From Candidatus Magasanikbacteria bacterium RIFCSPHIGHO2_01_FULL_41_23 (GTDB lineage Bacteria > Patescibacteriota > Patescibacteriia > Magasanikbacterales > UBA922): DNA of 64,000 nt. Where the stretch lies: positions 69,401 through 133,400 of the forward strand of contig MFPT01000002.1 of the NCBI GenBank assembly GCA_001782805.1, read 5' to 3'. Position numbers and translations under genes: made by a program. The stretch's first letter is position 1; every line of letters begins with the position of its first letter. Positions 5,777 to 62,067 of the stretch are shown here, piece after piece. The notes under the pieces were generated by a model that did no database searches, was not told the origin of the DNA, and saw nothing but the letters and a program-made list of their open reading frames with translations.

Positions 5777-7153
5777 TTAAAATAAATTTTTAAGTACAAT
5801 AAAACTAAATCCGCCGAAAAAAATAAAAATAACTCCCAAAATAATTCGGCGCCACAATGTTGGTTGAAATGCTCTCGGTAAAGTCCGATAATTTAACCAC
5901 GAAACCAAACCAATATGCACAAACATAGCCACCGCGTTCAGCACTGCTCCGGCCACGATTAATTTTTTAGGTTCGTGAATCCCGAACGCAAACAAAACAC
6001 AACCAAAAACTATTTGCGACCACAAAAAAGTCGCGTAAATCTTGGATAAATTTTTGGCATGCGAAACCCCGGTACGCAACGCCCAATTTTCCGCCATAAT
6101 TCGCGACGTGGAATCCATTACTCCCAGTTGAGTTTGGAACAACATAATTCCAGCCGCAATTAAAAACAATGTTCCCACAATGGGAAAAGTAATTGTCCCC
6201 AAAACGCGCGCTTCATTAATCACAAACATTATTCCTTGAGCGTTATTGGGCGATCCATACGCGGTGGCGTATGACAAAAGCATAAGCAAAAGCATGGCCA
6301 ATGTGCCCATTCCCCAAAAAACCAGCGCGTGCTCAGCGTTGACAAGCTTCCACCACAAACCAAATCGCTGACGATTCTCGGCAGTATCAGTCGCGGCCAC
6401 TCCGTCCAATTGAATTGGTTCACTCGCTCCCCGATGAAATAAACCGGCAATTTTTTGCGCGAACGCGCCCATGCCATAACCTTTTTCTTTAATATAAATT
6501 GATTGCGTTAAATTTAAATTTCCGCCCGCGCCAGAATAGGCGAACGCGCCTAAAAAAGTCGCCAGAATAATTCCTTCGGGCAGCCAATTATACCCATTGC
6601 CGCGGCCGATAATTCCTAAAGCCAACGCACTCCAATCAGTTTTGGTACTGACCCAAATCGCCAAAAATAAAATAAACGGCACACCAACCATAATTACGGT
6701 TTTAGTAATACGCTCCATCAATCCATACACTGTTTTGCCCAGACTTAAAATTAAACCGATACAGACCAAAAATACCGCGGCCAAAATTTTATAATCAGTC
6801 CAGCCGGCGGCGCTGGCCAAAAGTTGTGCCGAGGCCGCGATAATTCCGGGCAAACCAAAACCGAGAAAAGTGGAAAATATAAACCACAACGGTAAAATAC
6901 GAGATTGTTTGGCCAATCCTACAAAAACACTTTCACCCCGCACCAAAGCATAGCGTTCAATTTCCAGATTAATAAAAAATTGACAAGTAATTCCCAAAAC
7001 CGCTCCCCACGCAATTCCCAAACCATAATTCGCCACCAAATACGGCCACAAAATAACTTCGCCCGATCCCAATCCCAACGCTAAAATAATAAAACTGGGA
7101 CCAATCATTTTTTTTAAAGGAATCGGTTGGGGAAATTCAGTGGGATTGGACAT
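5777..7153 (-). CDS. Nramp-related (divergent) metal ion transporter family membrane protein
   Basis: About 11 predicted TM helices. N-terminal IGPSFIILALGLGSGEVILWPYLVANYG aligns with the Nramp TM1 region, with GSGE replacing DPGN. Confidence 0.5.
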   Translation of the reverse strand: MSNPTEFPQPIPLKKMIGPSFIILALGLGSGEVILWPYLVANYGLGIAWGAVLGITCQFFINLEIERYALVRGESVFVGLAKQSRILPLWFIFSTFLGFGLPGIIAASAQLLASAAGWTDYKILAAVFLVCIGLILSLGKTVYGLMERITKTVIMVGVPFILFLAIWVSTKTDWSALALGIIGRGNGYNWLPEGIILATFLGAFAYSGAGGNLNLTQSIYIKEKGYGMGAFAQKIAGLFHRGASEPIQLDGVAATDTAENRQRFGLWWKLVNAEHALVFWGMGTLAMLLLMLLSYATAYGSPNNAQGIMFVINEARVLGTITFPIVGTLFLIAAGIMLFQTQLGVMDSTSRIMAENWALRTGVSHAKNLSKIYATFLWSQIVFGCVLFAFGIHEPKKLIVAGAVLNAVAMFVHIGLVSWLNYRTLPRAFQPTLWRRIILGVIFIFFGGFSFIVLKNLF

Positions 7154-7947: not shown

Positions 7948-9654
7948 ATGAAAAATTCAATTGAAATTATTTTGCAATCAATTCTCGCGGCTCGGCTCAA
8001 AACCAAGAGCCAGTTTGACGACGCGCGCCGCATCGCGGCCAATGGTTTGAAAGTGCGTCAGCCCGGCAATCGCGCGCTCCTCGTATGCTACCAAAATTAT
8101 CTTAAAAAAACCAGAGAGAAAGCCGATCAAACATTATTACAATTAATTCGCAAAGCCAGTGTGCGCAGTCAATCCGGCATTGCGGTCGTGACTTCGCTCG
8201 TCAAACCATATATGTGTCCTGGTAAATGCGTGTATTGTCCCACGGAAGCGCGTATGCCCAAAAGTTATATTGCCACCGAACCGGCCGCGGCACGAGCGCT
8301 CGCGCTGAATTTTAATCCGTATGAGCTGATGCGCCAACGGATTATTATGCTCCAAGAAAACGGCCATCCGACAGATAAAATTGAATATATTATAAAAGGC
8401 GGCACCTGGAACGCCTATACTCTTGGTTACCAGTATTGGTATATTTTGGAATCTTTTAAAGCGTGCAATGAAATGAACAAAAATTCAAAACGTAAAAATA
8501 AAAAACCCAAACAAAAAATAAAAACAAAAAAACTTTCTGAACATTCGTCACTTAAAGATTTGCAAAATGCGCTGGCAATTGAGCAAAAGAAAAATGAAAC
8601 TGCGCAACATCGGATTATCGGTCTAACTTTGGAAACGCGTCCGGATGCGATTTCACCCAAAACAATTTGGCACATGCGCCAACAAGGCTGTACGCGCATT
8701 GAATTGGGATTACAAACTCCGGACGATAAAATTTTAGCACTAATCAAACGCGGACACACGGTTCAACAATTTCGTGATGCCATGTTTTTATTACGTCAGG
8801 CGGGATTCAAAGTTGATTTGCATTATATGCCGGATTTGCCCGGCACTACGCCCGATCATGATGTGGAAATGTACAAAGAAATTTTTGCTGATTCGGGTTT
8901 ACGACCCGACATGGTCAAGATTTATCCCAACACGGTTATCAAAAGCGCGGAATTATACCAATGGTTTCTGGATGGCCGTTATGTTCCCTATGGCGACACG
9001 CCGGCCATGACTGACGCGTTAATAAAAATGAAATTGGCCACGCCACGTTATTGTCGTATTTCGCGTTTGATTCGTGATATTCCGGCCACGGAAATTGAAG
9101 GCGGAAATAGAGTCACCAATCTGCGTGAATTGTTGGAAAAAAAAATCCATGACCAAGGAAAATTATGCGTGTGTTTGCGCTGTCGGGAAATTTCGCGACA
9201 AATTAAAAATTTACCAAAAAATACCAGACCGCGACTTTTTATTGATAGGTATGAAACGATTGGCGGCACAGAATATTTTTTAAGTTTTGAAGATAAAAAA
9301 CGCGTGGCGGTTTTTGGATTTCTGCGTTTAAGAATTCCCAAAAAAATAACAAATAATTCATATCAAATAAAAAATAATACTAAACAATTAGACGAGGTTT
9401 TACCCGTTACCAAAGATACGGCGTTTATTCGTGAACTCCATGTCTACGGCCAAATGGTGGAAATTGGCAAGCAAACCAAAAATGCCAGTCAACACACTGG
9501 TCTGGGCAAAAAATTAATGATCGCGGCGGAAAAAATTGCGCGGCAAAATAATTTTAAAAAAATAACTGTAATTTCCGGTGTTGGTGTGCGCGATTATTAC
9601 CGACATTTGGGATATCGATTAAAGGATACATATTTGACGAAAAGTTTAAAATAA
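7948..9654 (+). CDS. Elp3-like radical SAM / GNAT acetyltransferase (tRNA uridine-34 modification family)
   Basis: CPGKCVYCP radical-SAM cysteine cluster, conserved Elp3 core (IIKGGTWNAY, TLETRPD), C-terminal GNAT region. Contains a Lys-rich low-complexity insert. Confidence 0.75.
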   Translation: MKNSIEIILQSILAARLKTKSQFDDARRIAANGLKVRQPGNRALLVCYQNYLKKTREKADQTLLQLIRKASVRSQSGIAVVTSLVKPYMCPGKCVYCPTEARMPKSYIATEPAAARALALNFNPYELMRQRIIMLQENGHPTDKIEYIIKGGTWNAYTLGYQYWYILESFKACNEMNKNSKRKNKKPKQKIKTKKLSEHSSLKDLQNALAIEQKKNETAQHRIIGLTLETRPDAISPKTIWHMRQQGCTRIELGLQTPDDKILALIKRGHTVQQFRDAMFLLRQAGFKVDLHYMPDLPGTTPDHDVEMYKEIFADSGLRPDMVKIYPNTVIKSAELYQWFLDGRYVPYGDTPAMTDALIKMKLATPRYCRISRLIRDIPATEIEGGNRVTNLRELLEKKIHDQGKLCVCLRCREISRQIKNLPKNTRPRLFIDRYETIGGTEYFLSFEDKKRVAVFGFLRLRIPKKITNNSYQIKNNTKQLDEVLPVTKDTAFIRELHVYGQMVEIGKQTKNASQHTGLGKKLMIAAEKIARQNNFKKITVISGVGVRDYYRHLGYRLKDTYLTKSLK

Positions 9655-10914
9655 AAAACTCCAAAAAAGCCCAATTGATGCCCCGCCCATAATGAGCGTA
9701 ATAACCCAACCTAAAATATTTGACGCGCGCGAATTAACATATTCCCCCATTATTTTTTTATTGTTGGCAATGCGCAAAATCACGATCATGAGAATCGGCG
9801 CAATCGCGCCATTCACCACCGCCGTATAATACAGCATTTTGAAAGGCGGAATCTTGGTAAAATTCACCAACAATCCCACGACTGTGGCAATCATAATTAC
9901 CATATAAAATCCATGAGCATCGGAAAATTTCCGATACAAACCTTCTTTCCAATTGAAACTTTCGCTGACCGCGTACGAAGCCGAGCCAGCCAAAATCGGC
10001 ACGGCCAAAAGTCCGGTGCCAATAATTCCAACGGTAAATAACAAGTAGGCAAAGTTTCCCGCCAAAGGTTTCAAAGCCAATGCCGCATCGGCCGCAGTTT
10101 GAATATCAGCGATACCGTGCACACCAAGCGTGGTAGCGGCAGTGGCAATAATAAAAAAAGTAATGAGATTGGAAAAAAACATCCCAAAAAAAGTATCCAA
10201 TCGCATTCGACGGACATCACAATGCCTAATTTTTGGTTTGCCCGCGCCAAAATCTTTAATTTTATTGTGCGCGACTTCTTCTTCCACTTCTTCACCGGTT
10301 TGCCAAAAAAATAAATACGGAGAAATAGTTGTTCCCAACAAGGCAATGATATTTAATAAATATTCGCGCGTAAACGAAATATGCGGTACTAATGTGGCGA
10401 ACAGTATTGTCCCCCAATCCATTTTGACGACAAACGCCGTGGCAATATAGGCCAAAAGTGATAAGGCAAAATACTTTAAATATTTTAGGTATACTTTATA
10501 CGAAACAAAAATTTCCAAAAATAAAATCGTGAAGGTAAAAATTAAAATTAAAATGGAAAAAGAAACGCGTGGAAATAACAATTGTGCGGCCGCGGCCATG
10601 GCACCCAAATCAGCCCCGATATTTATGGTGTTGGCGATCAATAACAAACTAACTGAAAAAAATAAAAGTTTTTTACTGAAATGATTGCGGATTACGCCGG
10701 CCAATCCTTGACCGGTCACGAGTCCTATCCGACCGCACATTTCTTGCACCACGGTCATGAAGGGAAAAGTATAAAGGGCTGTCCATAATTGGGTCAATCC
10801 AAATTGGGCGCCGGTTTGGGTATACGTCGCGATTCCCGATGGATCATCATCGGACGCTCCGGTGATAAATCCCGGACCGAGTTTTTTTAAAAAATGTTTG
10901 ATTTTTTGGTTCAT
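9646..10914 (-). CDS. mntH: Nramp family divalent metal cation transporter (MntH-like)
   Basis: GPGFITGASDDDPSGIATYTQTGAQFG matches the Nramp TM1 consensus (GPGFL..DPGN..T..GA.FG). About 11 TM helices. Confidence 0.65.
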   Translation of the reverse strand: MNQKIKHFLKKLGPGFITGASDDDPSGIATYTQTGAQFGLTQLWTALYTFPFMTVVQEMCGRIGLVTGQGLAGVIRNHFSKKLLFFSVSLLLIANTINIGADLGAMAAAAQLLFPRVSFSILILIFTFTILFLEIFVSYKVYLKYLKYFALSLLAYIATAFVVKMDWGTILFATLVPHISFTREYLLNIIALLGTTISPYLFFWQTGEEVEEEVAHNKIKDFGAGKPKIRHCDVRRMRLDTFFGMFFSNLITFFIIATAATTLGVHGIADIQTAADAALALKPLAGNFAYLLFTVGIIGTGLLAVPILAGSASYAVSESFNWKEGLYRKFSDAHGFYMVIMIATVVGLLVNFTKIPPFKMLYYTAVVNGAIAPILMIVILRIANNKKIMGEYVNSRASNILGWVITLIMGGASIGLFWSFLF

Positions 10915-11849: not shown

Positions 11850-13121
11850 ATGTCCCTCCAAACCCAAGACCCTGACATCTACAATTTAATCCAAAAAGAA
11901 ATCGCCCGCCAAAGCGAAGGCTTGGAAATGATTCCATCCGAAAATCACACTTCCGGCGCAGTCTTGGAAGCTCTCGGATCTCGTCTCACCGACAAATACT
12001 CCGAAGGCTATCCGGGACAGCGCTATTATGGGGGTTGTGAAAATGTGGATGTAGTGGAAAATCTGGCGCGCTACCGTGCCAAGGAATTATTCGGCGCCAC
12101 GCACGCCAATGTCCAGCCTCATTCCGGCTGTCCAGCCAACCTTGCTGTGTATTTTGCCTTACTAAACCCAGGTGATACGGTACTTGGCTTGAATCTACAA
12201 CACGGCGGACACATGACTCATGGCTTGAAATTAAATTTTTCCGGTACGATTTACCATAGTGTCCAGTATACTTGTCGTCCGGACGGCTACATTGATCACG
12301 ATCAAATGCGCGCATTGGCCTTGGAACACAAACCAAAAATGATTATCGGTGGCGGAAGCGCCTATTCACGAATTTATGAATGGGCTAAATACAAAGAAAT
12401 TGCCGATGAAGTGGGCGCATTTTTACTCGCAGACATGAGTCATGTCGCCGGACTGGTGGCCGGAGGCGTATATCCGAATCCGGTCGGTATCGCTGATGTG
12501 GTTACCACGACCACGCACAAAACTTTGCGCGGTCCACGTGGTGCGATTATTCTTGCTAATGGTTTGCCCGCCACACCACTCAAAAAAGTGGAACGGACAA
12601 AAGAAAATATTCCGACTCTAATTGATCGTGCCATTATTCCCGGAATTCAAGGCGGTCCGCACAATCACCAAACCGCCGGCATTGCCGTGGCGCTCAAAGA
12701 AGCAATGCAACCGGAATTCAAGGTGTATGCGCAACAAATTTTGACCAACGCAAAATTATTGGCAGACGAACTAATGCAACGCGGTTATTCCATTGTCACC
12801 GGAGGCACGGAATCGCATTTGATGCTGATTGATTTGACCAATAAAAATTTAACCGGAAAAATTGCCGAAGCCACACTTGGAAAAGCGGGTATTACGGTCA
12901 ACAAAAATACCATTCCCTTTGATCCGCGTCCCCCATTTGACCCTTCCGGCATTCGTCTCGGCACACCGGCCTTGACCACGCGGGGCATGAAAGAAGCGGA
13001 AATGAAAATAATTGCCGGTTTTATTGACCGTGCGCTTGGGAATGCGGAAAATGAGATTGAACTTGCCAAAATTCGAGGAGAGGTGATGGAGATGTGTAAA
13101 TCATTTCCGTTGCCCATATAA
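11850..13121 (+). CDS. glyA: serine hydroxymethyltransferase
   Basis: Full-length SHMT with PLP-lysine region TTTTHKTLRGPRGA and other conserved blocks. Confidence 0.95.
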   Translation: MSLQTQDPDIYNLIQKEIARQSEGLEMIPSENHTSGAVLEALGSRLTDKYSEGYPGQRYYGGCENVDVVENLARYRAKELFGATHANVQPHSGCPANLAVYFALLNPGDTVLGLNLQHGGHMTHGLKLNFSGTIYHSVQYTCRPDGYIDHDQMRALALEHKPKMIIGGGSAYSRIYEWAKYKEIADEVGAFLLADMSHVAGLVAGGVYPNPVGIADVVTTTTHKTLRGPRGAIILANGLPATPLKKVERTKENIPTLIDRAIIPGIQGGPHNHQTAGIAVALKEAMQPEFKVYAQQILTNAKLLADELMQRGYSIVTGGTESHLMLIDLTNKNLTGKIAEATLGKAGITVNKNTIPFDPRPPFDPSGIRLGTPALTTRGMKEAEMKIIAGFIDRALGNAENEIELAKIRGEVMEMCKSFPLPI

Positions 13122-21830: not shown

Positions 21831-21935
21831 GATTAAAATAAAAATGGAACGGATGTAGCTTTTTTGAGTCCGTCCCGGTCGGGCGGATCTCAGAAAAAGA
21901 TACGCAGTGAATTTTTATTTTAATTTCCTGACGTG
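21831..21935. repeat. about 100-nt long-hairpin repeat element (copy 1), between ribE and MITE copy B
   Basis: Ends taaaataaaaatgga ... gaatttttattttaatttcct are inverted repeats. Internal gctttttt / aaaaagata arms. Homologous to 50090-50190. Confidence 0.65.
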
Positions 21936-48355: not shown

Positions 48356-48907
48356 TTATTCCTGCATAATTATCTTGAGTTTTGTCTTGCCGCGAGCAAT
48401 CAGAGTCCCAACCGTGCTCACCGGCACATGCAAAATGTCACTGATTTCTTCGTATGACTTTTCTTCAAAAAAATAAAGAACAACTGGCTCGCGATATTTT
48501 TCTTTTAATTTTTGCAACGCGCGACGGATGCGTAAGGCTCCTTCTTTTTTATCTATGGAAATGCCCAGTTCCAAACGGTCATCAGCTATTTCCCATTCAC
48601 CTTCATCCAAGATCAAGGCCTCGCGCTTGAATTTTTTGCAATGATTAATGGCTTCATTATGCGCGATGCGGTAAATCCAGGATGAAAATGATCGATTGGC
48701 GTCAAAATCGAATAAATTACGATAGGCTTTAATGAATACATCCTGAAGAATATCCTCATTCGCGGTTTCACTTGTCGTAAATCGGCGGATATAACGAGTC
48801 AATTTGGCTTGATATCGTCTAATGATTTCACCATAAAGTTCGGATTCACCGTTTCGCACCAAAACTAATATTGCTTCGTCGCTCTGATTGTTGCTCGTTT
48901 CAGGCAT
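48356..48907 (-). CDS. RNA polymerase sigma-70 factor, ECF subfamily
   Basis: Region 2 (DVFIKAYRNLFDFD...FSSWIYRIAHNEAINHCKK) and region 4 HTH (SYEEISDILHVPVSTVGTLIARGK). Confidence 0.85.
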   Translation of the reverse strand: MPETSNNQSDEAILVLVRNGESELYGEIIRRYQAKLTRYIRRFTTSETANEDILQDVFIKAYRNLFDFDANRSFSSWIYRIAHNEAINHCKKFKREALILDEGEWEIADDRLELGISIDKKEGALRIRRALQKLKEKYREPVVLYFFEEKSYEEISDILHVPVSTVGTLIARGKTKLKIIMQE

Positions 48908-49052
48908 ATTCTATAGTACACTCCTTTGGCTGATTTATTTCAAATAAACTTAAAGAATCCATCCAAAAGAACCTATTCTTATTGACAAAAAATGATAAAA
49001 TAATTATTCTTACGAACAGTCTAGCGCAATCAACAGCGCTACGAGGTTAGAA

Positions 49053-49961
49053 ATGGACGGAATTCCGGTTTTGGACATGTCTGAGTTCGGGGCTCATCCC
49101 GAACAGGACAAGCGTATCGCCGACTTGATCGGCGAGAACGCGAGAACGCTCAGCTTCATGGCCATCACTGGCCACGGAGTCGAAAACTCGCTCATCAACG
49201 ACGCGTTCGAGGCCATGCGCCAGGTCTTTCAGACCGGCATGACCGAGACGGAACGTCTCCACTACGAGTTCCCCGAGATCGGGCGTCAGGTGGGCTACAC
49301 GCCACCCGACACCGAACAATCGGTGGGACACGCGCTCAAGAACCGCATGCGCTTCTGGCACGTCATGGATCCCAAGTGCGGAATCCGGAACGTGTTCCCC
49401 AGCGAGGTTCTGGAGTTCGAGCGTGTCATGCTGGATCTGCATGCTGCGCTCAAGGGATTCGCGGCCAAAGTGCTCCGAGCCGTGGCCATCCATCTCGGCC
49501 GCGACCCCGAGTTCTTCGTCCGCTGGATCGAGGATGGCGCGAACCTGCTCCGCCCCATCCACTACCCGGCCCTGAACGGCGATGAGAATGTGGAACGCTC
49601 GGGCTCTCACACCGACATCAACCTCATCACCATCCTCGCGCCGGCCACTGTTCCAGGTCTCCGAGTAATGGGACCGGACGGCCAGTGGATCGACGCCAAC
49701 AACCCGCCCGGCACGCTCATCGTCAACTTCGGGGACATGATGCACATGCACACGTTCGGCGAGTTGAAGACGACTCTCCACGAAGTGCACAATCCGGGAA
49801 CCGCGTGCCCGGATCGGTACTCCATCCCCATCTTCATCCACCCGAACGGTCGGCGCATGCTCGTGGGTACCCAAGCCTACCTGCTCCGTCGCCTTCGTCA
49901 GATCAAGCTCATCGGAGAGCTCCCGCCGAACCAGATCGACTACCAGGACATCGAGTCCTAG
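49053..49961 (+). CDS. 2-oxoglutarate/Fe(II)-dependent oxygenase (isopenicillin N synthase-like superfamily), GC-rich foreign gene
   Basis: HTD...H facial triad (SGSHTDINL ... HEVHNPG). About 62% GC against about 38% flanks. ORFs on the other strands of this region are composition artefacts. Confidence 0.7.
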   Translation: MDGIPVLDMSEFGAHPEQDKRIADLIGENARTLSFMAITGHGVENSLINDAFEAMRQVFQTGMTETERLHYEFPEIGRQVGYTPPDTEQSVGHALKNRMRFWHVMDPKCGIRNVFPSEVLEFERVMLDLHAALKGFAAKVLRAVAIHLGRDPEFFVRWIEDGANLLRPIHYPALNGDENVERSGSHTDINLITILAPATVPGLRVMGPDGQWIDANNPPGTLIVNFGDMMHMHTFGELKTTLHEVHNPGTACPDRYSIPIFIHPNGRRMLVGTQAYLLRRLRQIKLIGELPPNQIDYQDIES

Positions 49962-50089
49962 TAGCGCCCACCCCCCAATCCCACCAATCGGGCGACAACC
50001 AAAACTATGTCACCCAACCCTTATTTCTAAAGTTTGGAAATAGAGGTTGGAGGAAACGACATAGTTTTTGTTTTATTAAAATGTATTTA

Positions 50090-50190
50090 CTAAAATAAAA
50101 ATGGACTGGATATAACTTTTTTGGGCACGGAATTTATGACGTGATCCAGAAAAAGTTATGCAAGGAATTTTTATTTTAATTTCCTTAATG
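50090..50190. repeat. about 100-nt long-hairpin repeat element (copy 2), between the GC-rich oxygenase gene and rplU
   Basis: Same conserved ends as copy 1. Central stem differs but stays partly complementary (ataactttttt / aaaaagttat). Confidence 0.65.
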
Positions 50191-50197
50191 TATTATT

Positions 50198-50231
50198 AAA
50201 AAAATCCTCGTTTGATGCAAGGATTTTTTAT
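50198..50231 (-). terminator. Rho-independent terminator downstream of rplU
   Basis: aaaaaaatcctcg..caaggatttttt hairpin with flanking A/T runs, so possibly bidirectional. Confidence 0.5.
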
Positions 50232-50242
50232 TATATTTTATT

Positions 50243-50554
50243 TTAAACTTTGATAACTTTCACTTTGGTGAAATGCTGCCGATGACCAATCGTTCTCTTA
50301 TAACGAACTTTGCGTTTATATTTAACCACTAAAATTTTCTTAGCACGCCCTTGTTCCGCCACAATGGCCTCAACCGTAACACCCTCCAAATACGGAGCGC
50401 CAATTTTAACATCCGTCCCATCATCTTCAGCCGTCAGCATTACTTTATCAAAAATAATAATACCGTTAACTTCGGCCGGAAGTTTTTCCACTTTTAAGGC
50501 ATCGCCACTTTTAACCAAATATTGCTTACCACCTGTTTCAATAACTGCGAACAT
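50243..50554 (-). CDS. rplU: 50S ribosomal protein L21
   Basis: MFAVIETGGKQYLVKSGDALKVEKL is the canonical L21 N-terminus; 103 aa. Confidence 0.9.
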   Translation of the reverse strand: MFAVIETGGKQYLVKSGDALKVEKLPAEVNGIIIFDKVMLTAEDDGTDVKIGAPYLEGVTVEAIVAEQGRAKKILVVKYKRKVRYKRTIGHRQHFTKVKVIKV

Positions 50555-61459: not shown

Positions 61460-61539
61460 GTAAAGAGAATTTTTTTAGTCTCAACAGCACAGGGTTGTCG
61501 GGACAAAAGATAGTTCTTTTGGAAAAGGAGTGGGAAAAG

Positions 61540-62067
61540 ATGAAAGGAATCACAGTTTCCTTGCCGGTTCAGATTGGAATCGGCCTCGGGATTGAATACT
61601 TCGGAATGGTCCCGGTTGAACCACAAGTTCAGCTGGACTCAATACGAGTTTATCCTGTTAGTGAGAATGGTGAGTCCGGACGGGTGACTCATTCCAACCG
61701 GATCGTGGTTGATCCGAATGATCAGAACTACGTTGCAGTGGTGAAGGCCATTCACAAGGTTCGTGATCGAAAGGATTTGAACTTCGGCCATGTGATCAAA
61801 GTCGCGTTGCCGAATCCAATCGGTTACTCGACCGGAGAGAAGATCATGTTCGTGGTCGTTCGTGAAGTAAGCTTTACGACCCGCGTCTGCCATGACATCA
61901 AGAACCGAGATGGTGTATCGGGCAAACATGCTGATGAAACCGTCCGGATGGCGATGCGACCGCGATCCAAATGCGCCAACTGGCACGCAATCGTGGATGC
62001 CTTGGCTAAAACGCTTCCGCAAGGAAACAAGACAGACAAAGGAGAAGCAGGCTATGCATCTCTCTGA
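61540..62067 (+). CDS. hypothetical 175-aa protein, GC-rich (about 52%) foreign-looking gene
   Basis: AAAGGAG RBS. Clear compositional shift from its flanks. No motif recognised. Confidence 0.45.
   Translation: MKGITVSLPVQIGIGLGIEYFGMVPVEPQVQLDSIRVYPVSENGESGRVTHSNRIVVDPNDQNYVAVVKAIHKVRDRKDLNFGHVIKVALPNPIGYSTGEKIMFVVVREVSFTTRVCHDIKNRDGVSGKHADETVRMAMRPRSKCANWHAIVDALAKTLPQGNKTDKGEAGYASL

Follow-up and report, generated by a model that had tools for sequence, protein, structure and literature searches.

The locus and its proposed transcription unit

On the plus strand of the window (the whole stretch of DNA that was analysed, 64 kb in length), positions 49053–49961 hold a GC-rich coding sequence of 302 amino acids for a 2OG/Fe(II)-dependent oxygenase with DIOX_N and 2OG-FeII_Oxy domains. 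Its GC content is 0.61 (GC1/2/3 = 0.63/0.39/0.82), whereas the 59 other open reading frames (ORFs) of at least 100 aa in the window have a GC of 0.404 ± 0.037 and a GC3 of 0.377 ± 0.061, making it an outlier at z = 5.6 for GC and 7.2 for GC3. This is the atypical composition looked for in a recent genomic island. Base composition rises from 0.38–0.40 before the island to 0.59–0.64 at ~49050–50000 and falls to 0.25–0.31 after it, and only one of the 1-kb bins of the window, that of the island, exceeds 0.50 GC. The first-pass annotation had described an abrupt compositional jump confined to one ORF, and both the single-gene island (61% GC against 40% for the other ORFs) and the jump are borne out by these values. 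It had also noted open frames, and many were indeed found open across the island; an antisense ORF of 275 aa at 49047–49874 was rejected as a real gene, being a codon-in-phase by-product that stays open because the oxygenase gene contains no TTA, CTA or TCA codons.

At fourfold sites of the oxygenase gene C and G are both enriched and A and T both depleted, a codon usage of high-GC style that led us to reject strand-specific nucleotide sparing (e.g. of U only); tRNA-driven codon preference is unlikely, because G-ending codons are enriched as strongly as C-ending ones. The change in GC is razor-sharp at the start codon, the spacers separating adjoining GC-rich genes at relatives' loci are AT-rich, and GC-richness runs ~40 nt beyond the stop codon in the window and in several relatives. 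A local, neutral GC-biased process acting without selection, such as GC-biased gene conversion in a recombination-prone cassette, would fit the enrichment at all three codon positions and in those ~40 nt of 3′ UTR, the joint enrichment of G and C with no tRNA-style preference, and the indels, inversion and relocation described below, which mark the cassette as recombinationally active. The sharp change at the start codon and the AT-rich spacers argue against it, since a tract-based process should not respect gene borders, and to our knowledge reports of biased gene conversion in bacteria describe effects far smaller than a shift of ~0.45 in GC3; we therefore consider such a process quite improbable.

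The gene occupies a slot between an ECF-type sigma-70 family gene (48356–48907, minus strand; Sigma70_r2 and r4_2) on the left and rplU (50243–50554, minus strand; ribosomal protein L21, Ribosomal_L21p, E 5.5e-35) on the right, Pfam-type domains confirming the flanking genes as first annotated. The module of sigma gene, 246-aa gene and 165-aa gene that flanks the oxygenase also occurs at L098 (L numbers denote loci other than the window), and rplU also adjoins the oxygenase at L001, L002, L004 and L098. An expectation that rpmA should follow rplU proved not to be relevant: recR comes after rplU in L010, a relative without the island at this position, and an E. coli L27 query found no match anywhere in the window.

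Upstream of the coding sequence lies a sigma-70-type promoter-like site (48982–49010, plus strand; TTGACA, 17 nt, TATTCT; 10/12 in a consensus scan), and a canonical TTGACA is found at the equivalent position in every clade member examined. The DNA alignment of the window to L001 and L002 starts at this putative promoter, at window position 48981. In the 5′ leader, a hairpin read from the sequence and folded (49022–49041, plus strand; TAGCGC, 8-nt loop, GCGCTA) has a folding energy of −9.6 kcal/mol, against −5.7 ± 2.2 for shuffles, and is followed directly by a GAGG Shine-Dalgarno motif (49043–49046, plus strand). Most clade loci have a GC-stem hairpin at the equivalent position; the form GCGC-UGAAAUAYU-GCGC is common to seven of them, and L011 carries the compensated pair GCGG/CCGC.

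Downstream, a GC-rich 3′ tail (49962–49997, plus strand) with a small stem in the predicted fold (GCGCC ... GGCGC) leads into a long imperfect hairpin and then UUUUUGUUUU (49997–50077, plus strand). The arms of this hairpin (49997–50011 and 50058–50072) are 93% complementary and are followed by a U run, and the 131-nt segment that spans it (49955–50085) folds at −37.1 kcal/mol (z = −3.9). The inverted-repeat hairpin annotated downstream of the oxygenase is thus real, at 49997–50072, and probably represents the intrinsic terminator of the oxygenase transcript. The ‘long-hairpin repeat’ reported beside it also exists, but as an element separate from the island (50087–50187 and 21832–21932, ~80% identical). 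The terminator-like hairpin was considered as a repeated or mobile end and rejected, having no second copy in the window or at any locus. In a subclade (L005, L007, L011, L019, L020 and L021) a different 3′ UTR element, of 115–125 nt with an AT loop, is conserved, and its sense strand shows G-U pairing and compensatory substitutions, as is typical of RNA. It was rejected as a general cassette end, since nhmmer placed it solely after the oxygenase and once per locus; in the window nhmmer found none. Rfam searches of the window flanks and L011 returned nothing beyond chance miRNA-like hairpin matches. The best reading of the island is as one autonomous transcription unit of ~1.1–1.2 kb, running from promoter to terminator.

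The enzyme and its relatives

Matches to PF03171 (2OG-FeII_Oxy; E 1e-16, 61.1 bits against a cut-off of 23) and PF14226 (DIOX_N; E 3e-11, 44.3 bits against a cut-off of 27.3) agree with the initial assignment to the 2OG-Fe(II) oxygenases with an HxD...H triad. That iron triad, H186-x-D188...H243, and R255-x-S257, which binds the 2OG C5 carboxylate, are invariant in alignments of 9 and of 21 sequences. Judged by these sequence features, the ORF encodes a complete 2OG/Fe(II) oxygenase. An AlphaFold2 model (pLDDT 93.3, pTM 0.92) has a predicted double-stranded beta-helix fold, and a Foldseek search of the PDB gave 351 matches at E ≤ 1e-3, of which the best 50 are all 2OG/IPNS-type oxygenases (TM 0.67–0.80). 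The closest structures are 3oox, the thymine-7-hydroxylase T7H of N. crassa (TM 0.78–0.80) and an ancestral EFE, and profile E-values rank 3oox (7e-53) and the EFE-like enzyme (6e-43) ahead of T7H (6e-36). The original label, isopenicillin-N-synthase-like, is accordingly apt at the level of superfamily and COG; as IPNS proper it does not stand (E ~2e-12, against 7e-53 to 3oox). NCBIfam holds no family for the protein.

A uridine-phosphorylase-like (Udp-like) gene or a PRK08202-type purine-nucleoside-phosphorylase (PNP) gene adjoins the oxygenase at 6 of 13 distinct loci; in the window the oxygenase stands by itself, with no phosphorylase partner. On the strength of this recurrent adjacency to two non-orthologous nucleoside phosphorylases, together with the T7H-like fold, the most likely substrate of the enzyme is a nucleobase or nucleoside, oxidised as part of salvage.

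DNA was fetched for 12 further distinct relatives (47–72% aa identity), giving 13 distinct contexts with the window, and all 12 lie in Magasanikbacteria-like CPR contigs. In 11 of them the oxygenase has a GC of 0.55–0.64 and a GC3 of 0.66–0.86, and the rest of the contig, computed with neighbouring GC-rich genes set aside, a GC of 0.30–0.47. The exception is L018, where the oxygenase GC3 of 0.57 is close to that of the host (~0.55) and the copy looks ameliorated, so that high GC is not universal in the clade. Among 17 homologues at 29–43% identity, 16 fall within ~0.04 of the GC of their contig, the other being L070 at +0.09. When 1.84 billion representatives were searched exhaustively with HMMER, two clusters came up at 53–58% identity, one at 47%, and then nothing above 41%. 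The best reading is that the oxygenase gene forms a small clade confined to Magasanikbacteria-like CPR/Patescibacteria.

The amino-acid composition of the oxygenase is itself GC-shifted (GC1 0.61–0.68 and GARP 0.27–0.31, against 0.47 and 0.22 for window proteins) and resembles that of homologues from genomes of 51–58% GC; the nearest outgroups with fetched DNA, at 35–39% identity, lie in contigs of 54–58% GC. Of the foreign origin first proposed, the part that survives is a GC-rich ancestry; its two specific forms, a recent transfer or an assembly chimera, fail on the evidence that follows.

Divergence, mobility and the persistence of base composition

The gene sits at a syntenic position in three pairs of genomes: window/L001, L005/L020 and L011/L021. 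Between the window and L001 the oxygenase is 72% identical at the protein level, beside 80% for rplU, 66% for ClpB, 62% for GT4 and 61% for DUF192, and the DNA alignment crosses the junction of promoter and coding sequence. The corresponding values are 57% for the oxygenase and 55–76% for host genes between the window and L098, 86% and 63–95% in L005/L020, and 82% and 53–91% in L011/L021; across five pairs the oxygenase protein has diverged 0.7–1.2 times as much as the host proteins. Fourfold sites of the oxygenase are largely randomised between window and L001 (0.49 identity, against a chance expectation of 0.32) and are at chance identity in distant clade pairs. In host genes the fourfold sites are mostly or completely randomised, the excess identity being 0.01–0.09 in window/L001 (large genes), ~0.17 in L011/L021 and ~0.30 in L005/L020. 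In all three syntenic pairs the synonymous identity of the oxygenase is consistently somewhat above that of host genes, which fits a constraint on synonymous sites and also later exchange between lineages.

A recent single transfer into this genome from a donor of high GC (an actinobacterium or a proteobacterium, for example) would explain the extreme contrast limited to one gene, the high-GC-style codon usage and the GC-shifted amino-acid composition. A recent island would also be absent from the same locus in relatives or have a near-identical donor; instead, orthologues at 57–72% identity sit at the same locus in L001, L002 and L004 and in L098, with synonymous sites near saturation, and flanking host genes of the window and L001 are 61–80% identical. 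The protein search for a donor lineage found no near-identical sequence among ~15 billion proteins: the best match, at 72%, is itself in another CPR genome, the next tier, outside the clade, reaches at most 41%, and an exact-sequence look-up of the window protein had no match on record. The promoter region is moreover AT-rich, native in style and conserved with relatives, and we regard such a transfer as highly improbable.

The abrupt change in composition, taken alone, is also what an assembly or binning chimera would produce, with a GC-rich fragment of another organism spliced into a CPR contig. Against this, the same junction of AT-rich promoter and GC-rich CDS and the gene order beside rplU are seen again in independent assemblies that come from other samples (L001, L002, L004 and L098), with four or more assemblies of a 72%-identical orthologue besides L098; the copies are 57–72% identical as proteins, so they are not one sequence re-assembled. 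An analogous structure is present at all other clade loci, and the borders coincide with predicted functional signals (promoter, start codon and terminator). We practically discount a chimera.

The position of the unit varies between relatives. The oxygenase is inverted between the window and L098 and lies elsewhere in L005, L007, L010 and L011; the neighbourhoods of L005 and L007 differ, their shared homology being limited to ~1.16–1.18 kb from position −78 to the terminator. L005 differs from L020, and L011 from L021, by a clean segment of ~1 kb, present in one and absent from the other, that carries the GC-rich gene for the Udp-like protein or the PNP. Next to the cassette of L005/L020 lies a tRNA gene, and such genes are classical hotspots of integration. 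No tRNA gene was found in the window, no recombinase among the eight genes flanking its oxygenase, and no convincing terminal repeats or target duplications around the island or at the Udp/PNP indel junctions; the mobility signature of a recent island is thus missing from the window borders. An 11-nt inverted repeat that brackets the coding sequence (49036–49046 and 49957–49967) was treated as chance, as 25 pairs of this kind occur within 1.45 kb.

Both non-orthologous phosphorylases found next to the oxygenase are GC-rich. The Udp-like gene was also sampled at five loci of four oxygenase-free CPR genomes and is GC-elevated at all five, by 0.06–0.17; it is carried by Parcubacteria SG8_24, a CPR genome of 60% GC, and GC-rich CPR reservoirs therefore exist. 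The JGI gene call at L010 9022–9912 is antisense to a Udp-like gene. Neighbouring salvage genes for cytidine deaminase (L099) and adenosine deaminase (L101) are not GC-elevated.

These data bear on the main rival to the reading we favour, namely recurrent horizontal replacement, in which an accessory cassette, with or without a phosphorylase, would circulate among CPR bacteria from a poorly sampled GC-rich reservoir such as GC-rich Patescibacteria, every copy being GC-rich since it is younger than its own amelioration time. Differences in position, orientation and partner gene between fairly close relatives agree with it, as do the slight excess of synonymous identity in the syntenic pairs, the occurrence of the Udp-like partner in a 60% GC genome and its elevated GC where no oxygenase is present, and the tRNA gene beside the L005/L020 cassette. 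Across 13 distinct contexts and ~15 billion proteins, however, not one clade member has GC-rich surroundings, phage and plasmid collections searched for vehicles gave only matches of at most 33% identity, and the junctions examined revealed no integrase, transposase, terminal repeat or target duplication. Divergence follows host divergence in five genome pairs, and the AT-rich promoter, the leader hairpin and the subclade 3′ UTR are conserved with the coding sequence over 40–45% protein divergence, which indicates that the unit diversified inside AT-rich genomes. On balance we judge recurrent replacement unlikely, if still a serious contender.

The composition has also outlasted what simple decay would allow. 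In the syntenic pairs, the GC at fourfold sites (GC4) is 0.69–0.89 for the oxygenase and mostly 0.24–0.55 for host genes. Under a resampling model of F81 type, an excess in composition falls with the square root of the excess in identity. Starting from an ancestral GC4 as high as 1.0, this model would leave no more than ~0.61–0.66 in L011/L021, where 0.80–0.89 is observed, and no more than ~0.54–0.65 in window/L001, where 0.73–0.77 is observed; the model is crude and the samples of fourfold sites are small (n ~90–130). Polarised synonymous changes in the oxygenase have a ratio of S>W to W>S of ~2:1 when pooled and ~1:1 in L011, L021 and L020, whereas ~8:1 would be expected under the host mutational bias; polarisation used three taxa, and L007 was left out because its triplet is unrooted. 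In the lineages of the window, L001 and L005, S>W changes exceed W>S changes by 3–6:1, on small counts, and slow decay may be under way there.

We therefore favour, with moderate confidence, an anciently acquired oxygenase cassette related to nucleosides or nucleobases, whose GC-rich coding composition would be actively maintained. The ancestral gene probably came from a GC-rich lineage in the distant past, most likely together with a uridine-phosphorylase-like gene with which it formed a divergent pair. Inheritance afterwards would have been mostly vertical, in step with host genes, with occasional relocation, inversion or separation from the partner, the window lineage being left with the oxygenase alone. 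The coding GC would have escaped amelioration, GC3 being held at ~0.7–0.85 by a force acting on the coding sequence, for which selection on nucleotide or codon composition and a GC-biased process are candidates. Given the inversion at L098 and the shifted sites in L005, L007, L010 and L011, there may have been independent insertions, and hence more horizontal transfer than assumed here.

A more speculative proposal, to which we give a small chance, is that selection acts on the GC-rich composition as such, the oxygenase, uridine-phosphorylase-like and purine-nucleoside-phosphorylase genes being kept poor in A and T(U) in AT-rich Patescibacteria, perhaps so that their mRNAs would still be made, or would survive, when A/U nucleotides are scarce or AU-targeting RNases are active. 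It is hinted at by the way the anomaly follows function, in both phosphorylases beside the oxygenase and in the five further Udp-like loci, and by its restriction to coding sequence and its resistance to amelioration. The compositionally normal deaminase genes that adjoin some of these loci, and the L018 oxygenase, speak against it.

Compositional outliers are routinely taken as recent transfers or mis-assemblies, with amelioration used as a clock. Here an oxygenase keeps a ‘foreign’ GC3 of ~0.8 in genomes of ~38–40% GC despite turned-over host synonymous sites, and its nucleoside-phosphorylase partners behave likewise. The hosts are unable to make nucleotides de novo. If the maintenance is selective, the cassette would make it possible to study, in a natural setting, how selection acts on the nucleotide composition of single genes in reduced, salvage-dependent symbionts; if it instead reflects constant cassette traffic, it would point to a hidden exchange network among CPR bacteria that includes GC-rich lineages. 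In practical terms, such genes in CPR MAGs should not be filtered away as contamination, and gene callers choose the wrong strand in such islands, as at L010. The locus also flags an uncharacterised oxygenase subfamily tied to nucleoside salvage. In the literature we found nothing relevant on GC-rich islands in CPR or on the pairing of oxygenase and phosphorylase.

Comparison with known systems

Under the amelioration model of Lawrence and Ochman, acquired DNA reportedly decays towards host composition at the rate of synonymous substitution. The oxygenase resembles the genes treated by that model, and genomic islets, in being an accessory gene of atypical composition with a patchy and positionally variable distribution, and its amino-acid composition, as in islets, points to a GC-rich source. 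It departs from the model in that it keeps its GC3 even though synonymous sites of host genes have reached saturation between carriers, and from islets in that the window borders have no integrase, direct repeats or tRNA. Were composition itself the trait, it would be comparable, at the level of nucleotides, to the ‘element sparing’ of assimilation enzymes, or could be regarded as a composition-coded regulon.

Like integron and other promoterless cassettes, the unit is a ~1-kb single-gene entity with a structured 3′ hairpin that is present, absent or rearranged between relatives. Unlike an integron cassette, it has its own conserved TTGACA promoter, it is not part of a cassette array, and no integrase (intI) was found among the eight flanking genes scanned; unlike attC, its 3′ structure is gene-specific and RNA-like, with G-U pairing and compensatory substitutions in the sense strand.

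For the enzyme, the closest match in both sequence and structure is Caulobacter CC_0200 (3oox), with the bacterial ‘iron/ascorbate oxidoreductases’ of COG3491 (PcbC-like): its profile E-value of 7e-53 is joined by a Foldseek E of 3e-27, the same length and the same motifs. Identity is only ~29%, however, these proteins have no assigned function and are at the normal composition of their hosts, and a gap separates the CPR clade from all other proteins, identity outside the clade being at most 47%. N. crassa T7H (PDB 5c3p–5c3s; PMC4787775) shares the DIOX_N/2OG-FeII_Oxy fold and a nucleobase-salvage context. Its H214/D216/H271 and R286/S288 align to H186/D188/H243 and R255/S257 of the oxygenase. 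In T7H, Phe292 and Tyr217 form the aromatic pair that sandwiches the substrate, together with Arg190 (PMC4787775); Arg190 and the stacking Phe292 are conserved in the oxygenase as R167 and F261, whereas Tyr217 is replaced by Ile189 and overall identity is only 24–28%. R167 and F261 are not diagnostic of thymine specificity, since 3oox and the EFE-like enzyme have them too. Among the genes called next to the oxygenase, none was noted as an iso-orotate decarboxylase; the neighbour is instead a nucleoside phosphorylase.

The GC-rich island and its flanking elements

Measured in 300-nt windows, GC content rises from 0.38–0.40 to 0.61–0.63 at ~49.05–50.0 kb and falls to 0.29 thereafter; this is the sole 1-kb bin above 0.50 GC in the 64-kb window. 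The abrupt jump confined to one ORF, reported in the first-pass annotation, is thus real and sharp: the oxygenase ORF (49053–49961, +; 302 aa, GC 0.61, GC1/2/3 of 0.63/0.39/0.82) is an outlier by 5.6 SD in GC and 7.2 SD in GC3 relative to the 59 remaining ORFs of 100 aa or more (mean GC 0.404 ± 0.037, mean GC3 0.377 ± 0.061). The second-highest GC3 in the window, at 61495–62067 (+), is only mildly elevated (GC 0.50, GC3 0.55). The flanking genes are those described previously, an ECF-type sigma factor (48356–48907, −) and rplU (50243–50554, −), and many frames are open across the island, as had also been noted. A 275-aa antisense ORF was rejected as a gene; its phase matches the sense codons, making it a by-product of GC-rich codon usage.

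Upstream of the oxygenase lies a sigma-70-type promoter-like site, TTGACA-17-TATTCT (48982–49010), followed by a 5′ leader hairpin with a 6-bp GC stem (49022–49041) that precedes a GAGG Shine-Dalgarno motif (49043–49046). The stop codon is followed by a GC-rich stretch of ~40 bases with a small stem, and then by the inverted-repeat hairpin that had been noticed after the gene. This long hairpin (49997–50072, then UUUUUGUUUU) is a plausible intrinsic terminator; the 131-nt segment that includes it folds at −37 kcal/mol (z = −3.9). The island flanks matched no Rfam family. The neighbouring ‘long-hairpin repeat’ of the first-pass annotation exists in two ~80% identical copies (50087–50187 and 21832–21932), but is a distinct element, independent of the island: both copies of this ~100-nt structured intergenic repeat are bounded by TAAAATAAAAATGGA ... 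GAATTTTTATTTTAATTTCC, their differences preserve the stem, and the repeat is missing from the corresponding spacer of L002, a relative's contig. The rplU terminator (50199–50229) comes after it.

Residence, distribution and persistent composition

The island had been read as either a recent horizontal transfer or an assembly chimera. An orthologue of 72% identity occupies the same site, adjoining rplU-DUF192-GT4-ClpB, in contigs L001, L002 and L004 (three ENA samples and one Logan run), and the window aligns with L001 and L002 at the nucleotide level from 70 bp 5′ of the start codon, through the compositional boundary and into coding sequence. On a further contig, L098, the slot order is again DUF192-rplU-[oxygenase]-sigma-246aa-165aa, which together with the boundary-spanning alignment rules out a chimera. 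A recent transfer is rejected as well, since the orthologue at this slot is only 57–72% identical, a divergence comparable to that of host genes: 72% against 61–80% for host proteins in L001, and 57% against 55–76% in L098. For two closer syntenic pairs, the values are 86% against 63–95% (L005/L020) and 82% against 53–91% (L011/L021). These comparisons indicate that the oxygenase has been resident in these lineages since their split. A donor lineage did not emerge from protein homology, where the best match was 72%, in CPR-like contigs. What stands of the earlier interpretation is the island itself and a plausible foreign source, suggested by its GC-shifted amino acid composition, but not a recent one.

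The exact window protein is absent from a collection of ~15 billion proteins, in which only eight clusters fall at 53–72% identity, and when 1.84 billion representatives were scanned exhaustively with HMMER, two fell at 53–58%, one at 47% and the rest at or below 41%, a steep identity gap around the clade. The contigs fetched for the clade (L001–L022, L097 and L098) share CPR-like gene content, with Candidatus Magasanikbacteria named in GTDB titles. The oxygenase is of 55–64% GC (GC3 0.66–0.86) in all but one of the 12 further distinct genes, and the remaining DNA of those contigs is of 30–47% GC when neighbouring GC-rich genes are set aside. The sole member without the anomaly (L018 6588–7493; GC 0.53, GC3 0.57) lies on a contig of ~0.49 GC with a large neighbour of GC3 0.55, and its GC1 is still 0.63. 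Control homologues (29–43% identity) were within ~0.04 of contig GC in 16 of 17 cases, the other being +0.09, and this held for contigs of 28% as of 58% GC, so the anomaly belongs to the clade and not to the window contig.

Nor does this composition appear to ameliorate. Fourfold sites of distant clade members are no more identical than base composition predicts. Between the window and L001, excess fourfold identity in large host genes is 0.09 (ClpB) and 0.01 (GT4), with oxygenase GC4 of 0.77/0.73 versus 0.24–0.54 in host genes; for L011/L021, host excess is ~0.17 and oxygenase GC4 is 0.89/0.80 versus ~0.3–0.47 in most host genes. A rough calculation with a simple resampling model, which takes the gene and the surrounding genes to evolve at equal rates, lets the excess in identity fall off as exp(-2ut) and that in composition as exp(-ut); even an ancestral GC4 of 1.0 then predicts ~0.61–0.66 (L011/L021) and ~0.54–0.65 (window/L001), which the observed oxygenase values exceed by 3–6 standard errors. 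If the slower synonymous clock of the oxygenase itself is used instead, the test loses strength among the closest pairs but keeps it among deeper ones; in window/L098 the oxygenase has an excess identity of 0.08 and GC4 of 0.85/0.77. The ratio of polarised synonymous changes from G/C to A/T over the reverse is ~2:1 overall and ~1:1 in three lineages, against ~8:1 expected from host bias. Changes to A/T predominate in the window and L001 lineages, and slow erosion is possible there.

Several processes could hold the composition. Fourfold sites are enriched in both G and C and depleted in both A and T, which argues against tRNA-driven codon choice or the sparing of one nucleotide. Biased gene conversion, or another process acting on tracts, is difficult to reconcile with the sharp GC boundary at the start codon and the AT-rich spacers between adjacent GC-rich genes. 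Selection might act on the composition of the coding sequence or mRNA, favouring for instance transcript stability or expression when A/U is short. The cytidine deaminase gene (L099) and the adenosine deaminase gene (L101) that neighbour a uridine-phosphorylase-like gene show no GC elevation, nor does the L018 oxygenase.

The cassette, its partner genes and its origin

The TTGACA promoter is present in every clade member examined and the leader hairpin in most. Within the 42 nt examined in relatives (−48 to −7 relative to ATG), the GC-stem hairpin was found in L002, L005, L007, L011, L018–L021 and L098, besides the window; GCGC-UGAAAUAYU-GCGC is common to seven loci and L011 has a compensated GCGG/CCGC, although the energies are modest and the significance is uncertain. 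A subclade also carries a 3′ UTR element of 115–125 nt directly after the stop codon (L005 10917–11031, L007 10942–11057, L011 10922–11043, L019 2423–2545, L020 5857–5972 and L021 10449–10572), with two hairpins, one a nested GC hairpin and the other long with a conserved 4-nt bulge, then a separate terminator. Six of its 43 predicted pairs show compensatory changes, several are G-U pairs on the sense strand, and its conservation is far above that of oxygenase synonymous sites. Rfam yielded no match to the element, the window lacks it and, in a search of ~100 loci, it was seen solely after the oxygenase. The conservation of promoter, leader and 3′ UTR speaks for AT-rich genomes as the setting in which the unit diversified.

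L005 and L007 encode 82%-identical proteins in unrelated neighbourhoods, and share only ~1.16–1.18 kb of DNA, from −78 (the −35 box) to the terminator. L005 differs from the syntenic L020 by a clean ~1.0-kb segment with a GC-rich uridine-phosphorylase-like (Udp-like) gene, beside a tRNA gene; by eye, a tRNA-like gene end (GTGGGTGATAAAGGATTCGAACC...; L005 ~12100–12160, L020 ~6060–6120) adjoins the oxygenase/Udp-like cassettes and could be an integration hotspot. L011 and L021 differ by a ~1.04-kb segment with a GC-rich purine-nucleoside phosphorylase (PNP; PRK08202, 303 bits, cut-off 218), which in L011 lies immediately upstream of the oxygenase −35 box. In L010, the rplU slot lacks the oxygenase, which is 8 kb off beside a Udp-like gene, and in L098 its orientation is inverted relative to the window. 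Of note given this inversion, the window CDS is precisely bracketed by an 11-nt inverted repeat with one mismatch (GCGCTACGAGG / CCTAGTAGCGC; 49036–49046 and 49957–49967), whose arms fall at the Shine-Dalgarno region and the stop codon; with 25 such pairs in 1.45 kb, this one is probably chance. Cassette junctions yielded neither a recombinase nor terminal repeats or target duplications, and the 64-kb window has no gene for Udp, PNP or a tRNA.

A nucleoside phosphorylase, of two non-orthologous types, adjoins the oxygenase in 6 of 13 distinct loci. A divergent arrangement of Udp-like gene and oxygenase is seen in L002, L010, L016 and L097 (the 47% outgroup), and so is probably ancestral. In L010, the public JGI annotation places a 296-aa ‘hypothetical’ without Pfam hits at 9022–9912 (+), in the antisense frame of the true Udp-like gene (~9133–9810, −); gene callers are led astray by islands of high GC in AT-rich genomes. 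A longest-ORF heuristic likewise chose antisense frames in L007, L010, L011 and L016. Other GC-rich genes in relatives, including 136-aa and 360-aa proteins without a family match and an SDR oxidoreductase, suggest that the set of non-ameliorated genes may be larger. Such genes lie at L007 7059–7469 (−), L010 11166–11957 (+) and, together with the same GC-rich Udp-like/oxygenase pair, L016 7244–8326 (+) and 12253–12663 (−); L016 (CAZMHV010000001.1, 324.7 kb, 43.5% GC) is titled ‘uncultured Gammaproteobacteria’, a label that may be wrong.

Clade oxygenases have GC1 of 0.61–0.68 and GARP of 0.27–0.31 (0.47 and 0.22 for window proteins; GARP 0.16–0.21 for homologues from AT-rich genomes), like homologues of 51–58% GC genomes, and the nearest outgroups with DNA (35–39% identity) lie on contigs of 54–58% GC. 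Ancient acquisition from a GC-rich lineage would be the simplest origin. A GC-rich CPR reservoir stays alive as a rival explanation: members of the Udp-like family are found widely among Patescibacteria, and the gene is GC-elevated by +0.06 to +0.17 in all five further loci sampled (four distinct genomes), including, with no adjacent oxygenase, L099 6001–6810 (+0.11 versus contig GC), L101 6001–6783 (+0.17), L103 6001–6777 (+0.06) and L105 6001–6798 (+0.16). L103 and L104 are from Parcubacteria SG8_24, a CPR genome of ~60% GC. The conserved promoter, leader and 3′ UTR weigh against such a reservoir. The oxygenase unit is best read as an old, self-contained CPR cassette with a persistently non-ameliorated GC-rich CDS.

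Predicted function and relation to known systems

The DIOX_N and 2OG-FeII_Oxy domains exceed Pfam cut-offs, and the iron triad (H186, D188, H243) and 2OG-binding R255/S257 are invariant in clade alignments, bearing out the first-pass call of a 2OG/Fe(II) oxygenase; its isopenicillin-N-synthase-like label holds for the superfamily, but true IPNS is only distantly related (E ~1e-12). A confident AlphaFold2 model (pLDDT 93.3) matches the functionally unassigned Caulobacter CC_0200 (3oox), N. crassa thymine-7-hydroxylase (T7H; TM 0.78–0.80), an ancestral ethylene-forming enzyme (EFE) and a Pseudomonas IPNS-like protein. Of the T7H residues Arg190, stacking Phe292 and Tyr217 (PMC4787775), the first two correspond to R167 and F261, a pair also found in 3oox and the EFE-like enzyme, whereas Tyr217 is replaced by Ile189. 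Taken together, the fold matches, conserved residues and phosphorylase adjacency make oxidation of a nucleobase or nucleoside in salvage our leading, though tentative, candidate role. Such a role would be sensible in CPR bacteria, which are not known to synthesise nucleotides de novo.

In conclusion, we found no description of a GC-rich oxygenase cassette in the literature. The oxygenase is a new member of the known 2OG/Fe(II) superfamily, and the evolutionary behaviour of its cassette is an unusual form of the genomic-islet theme.
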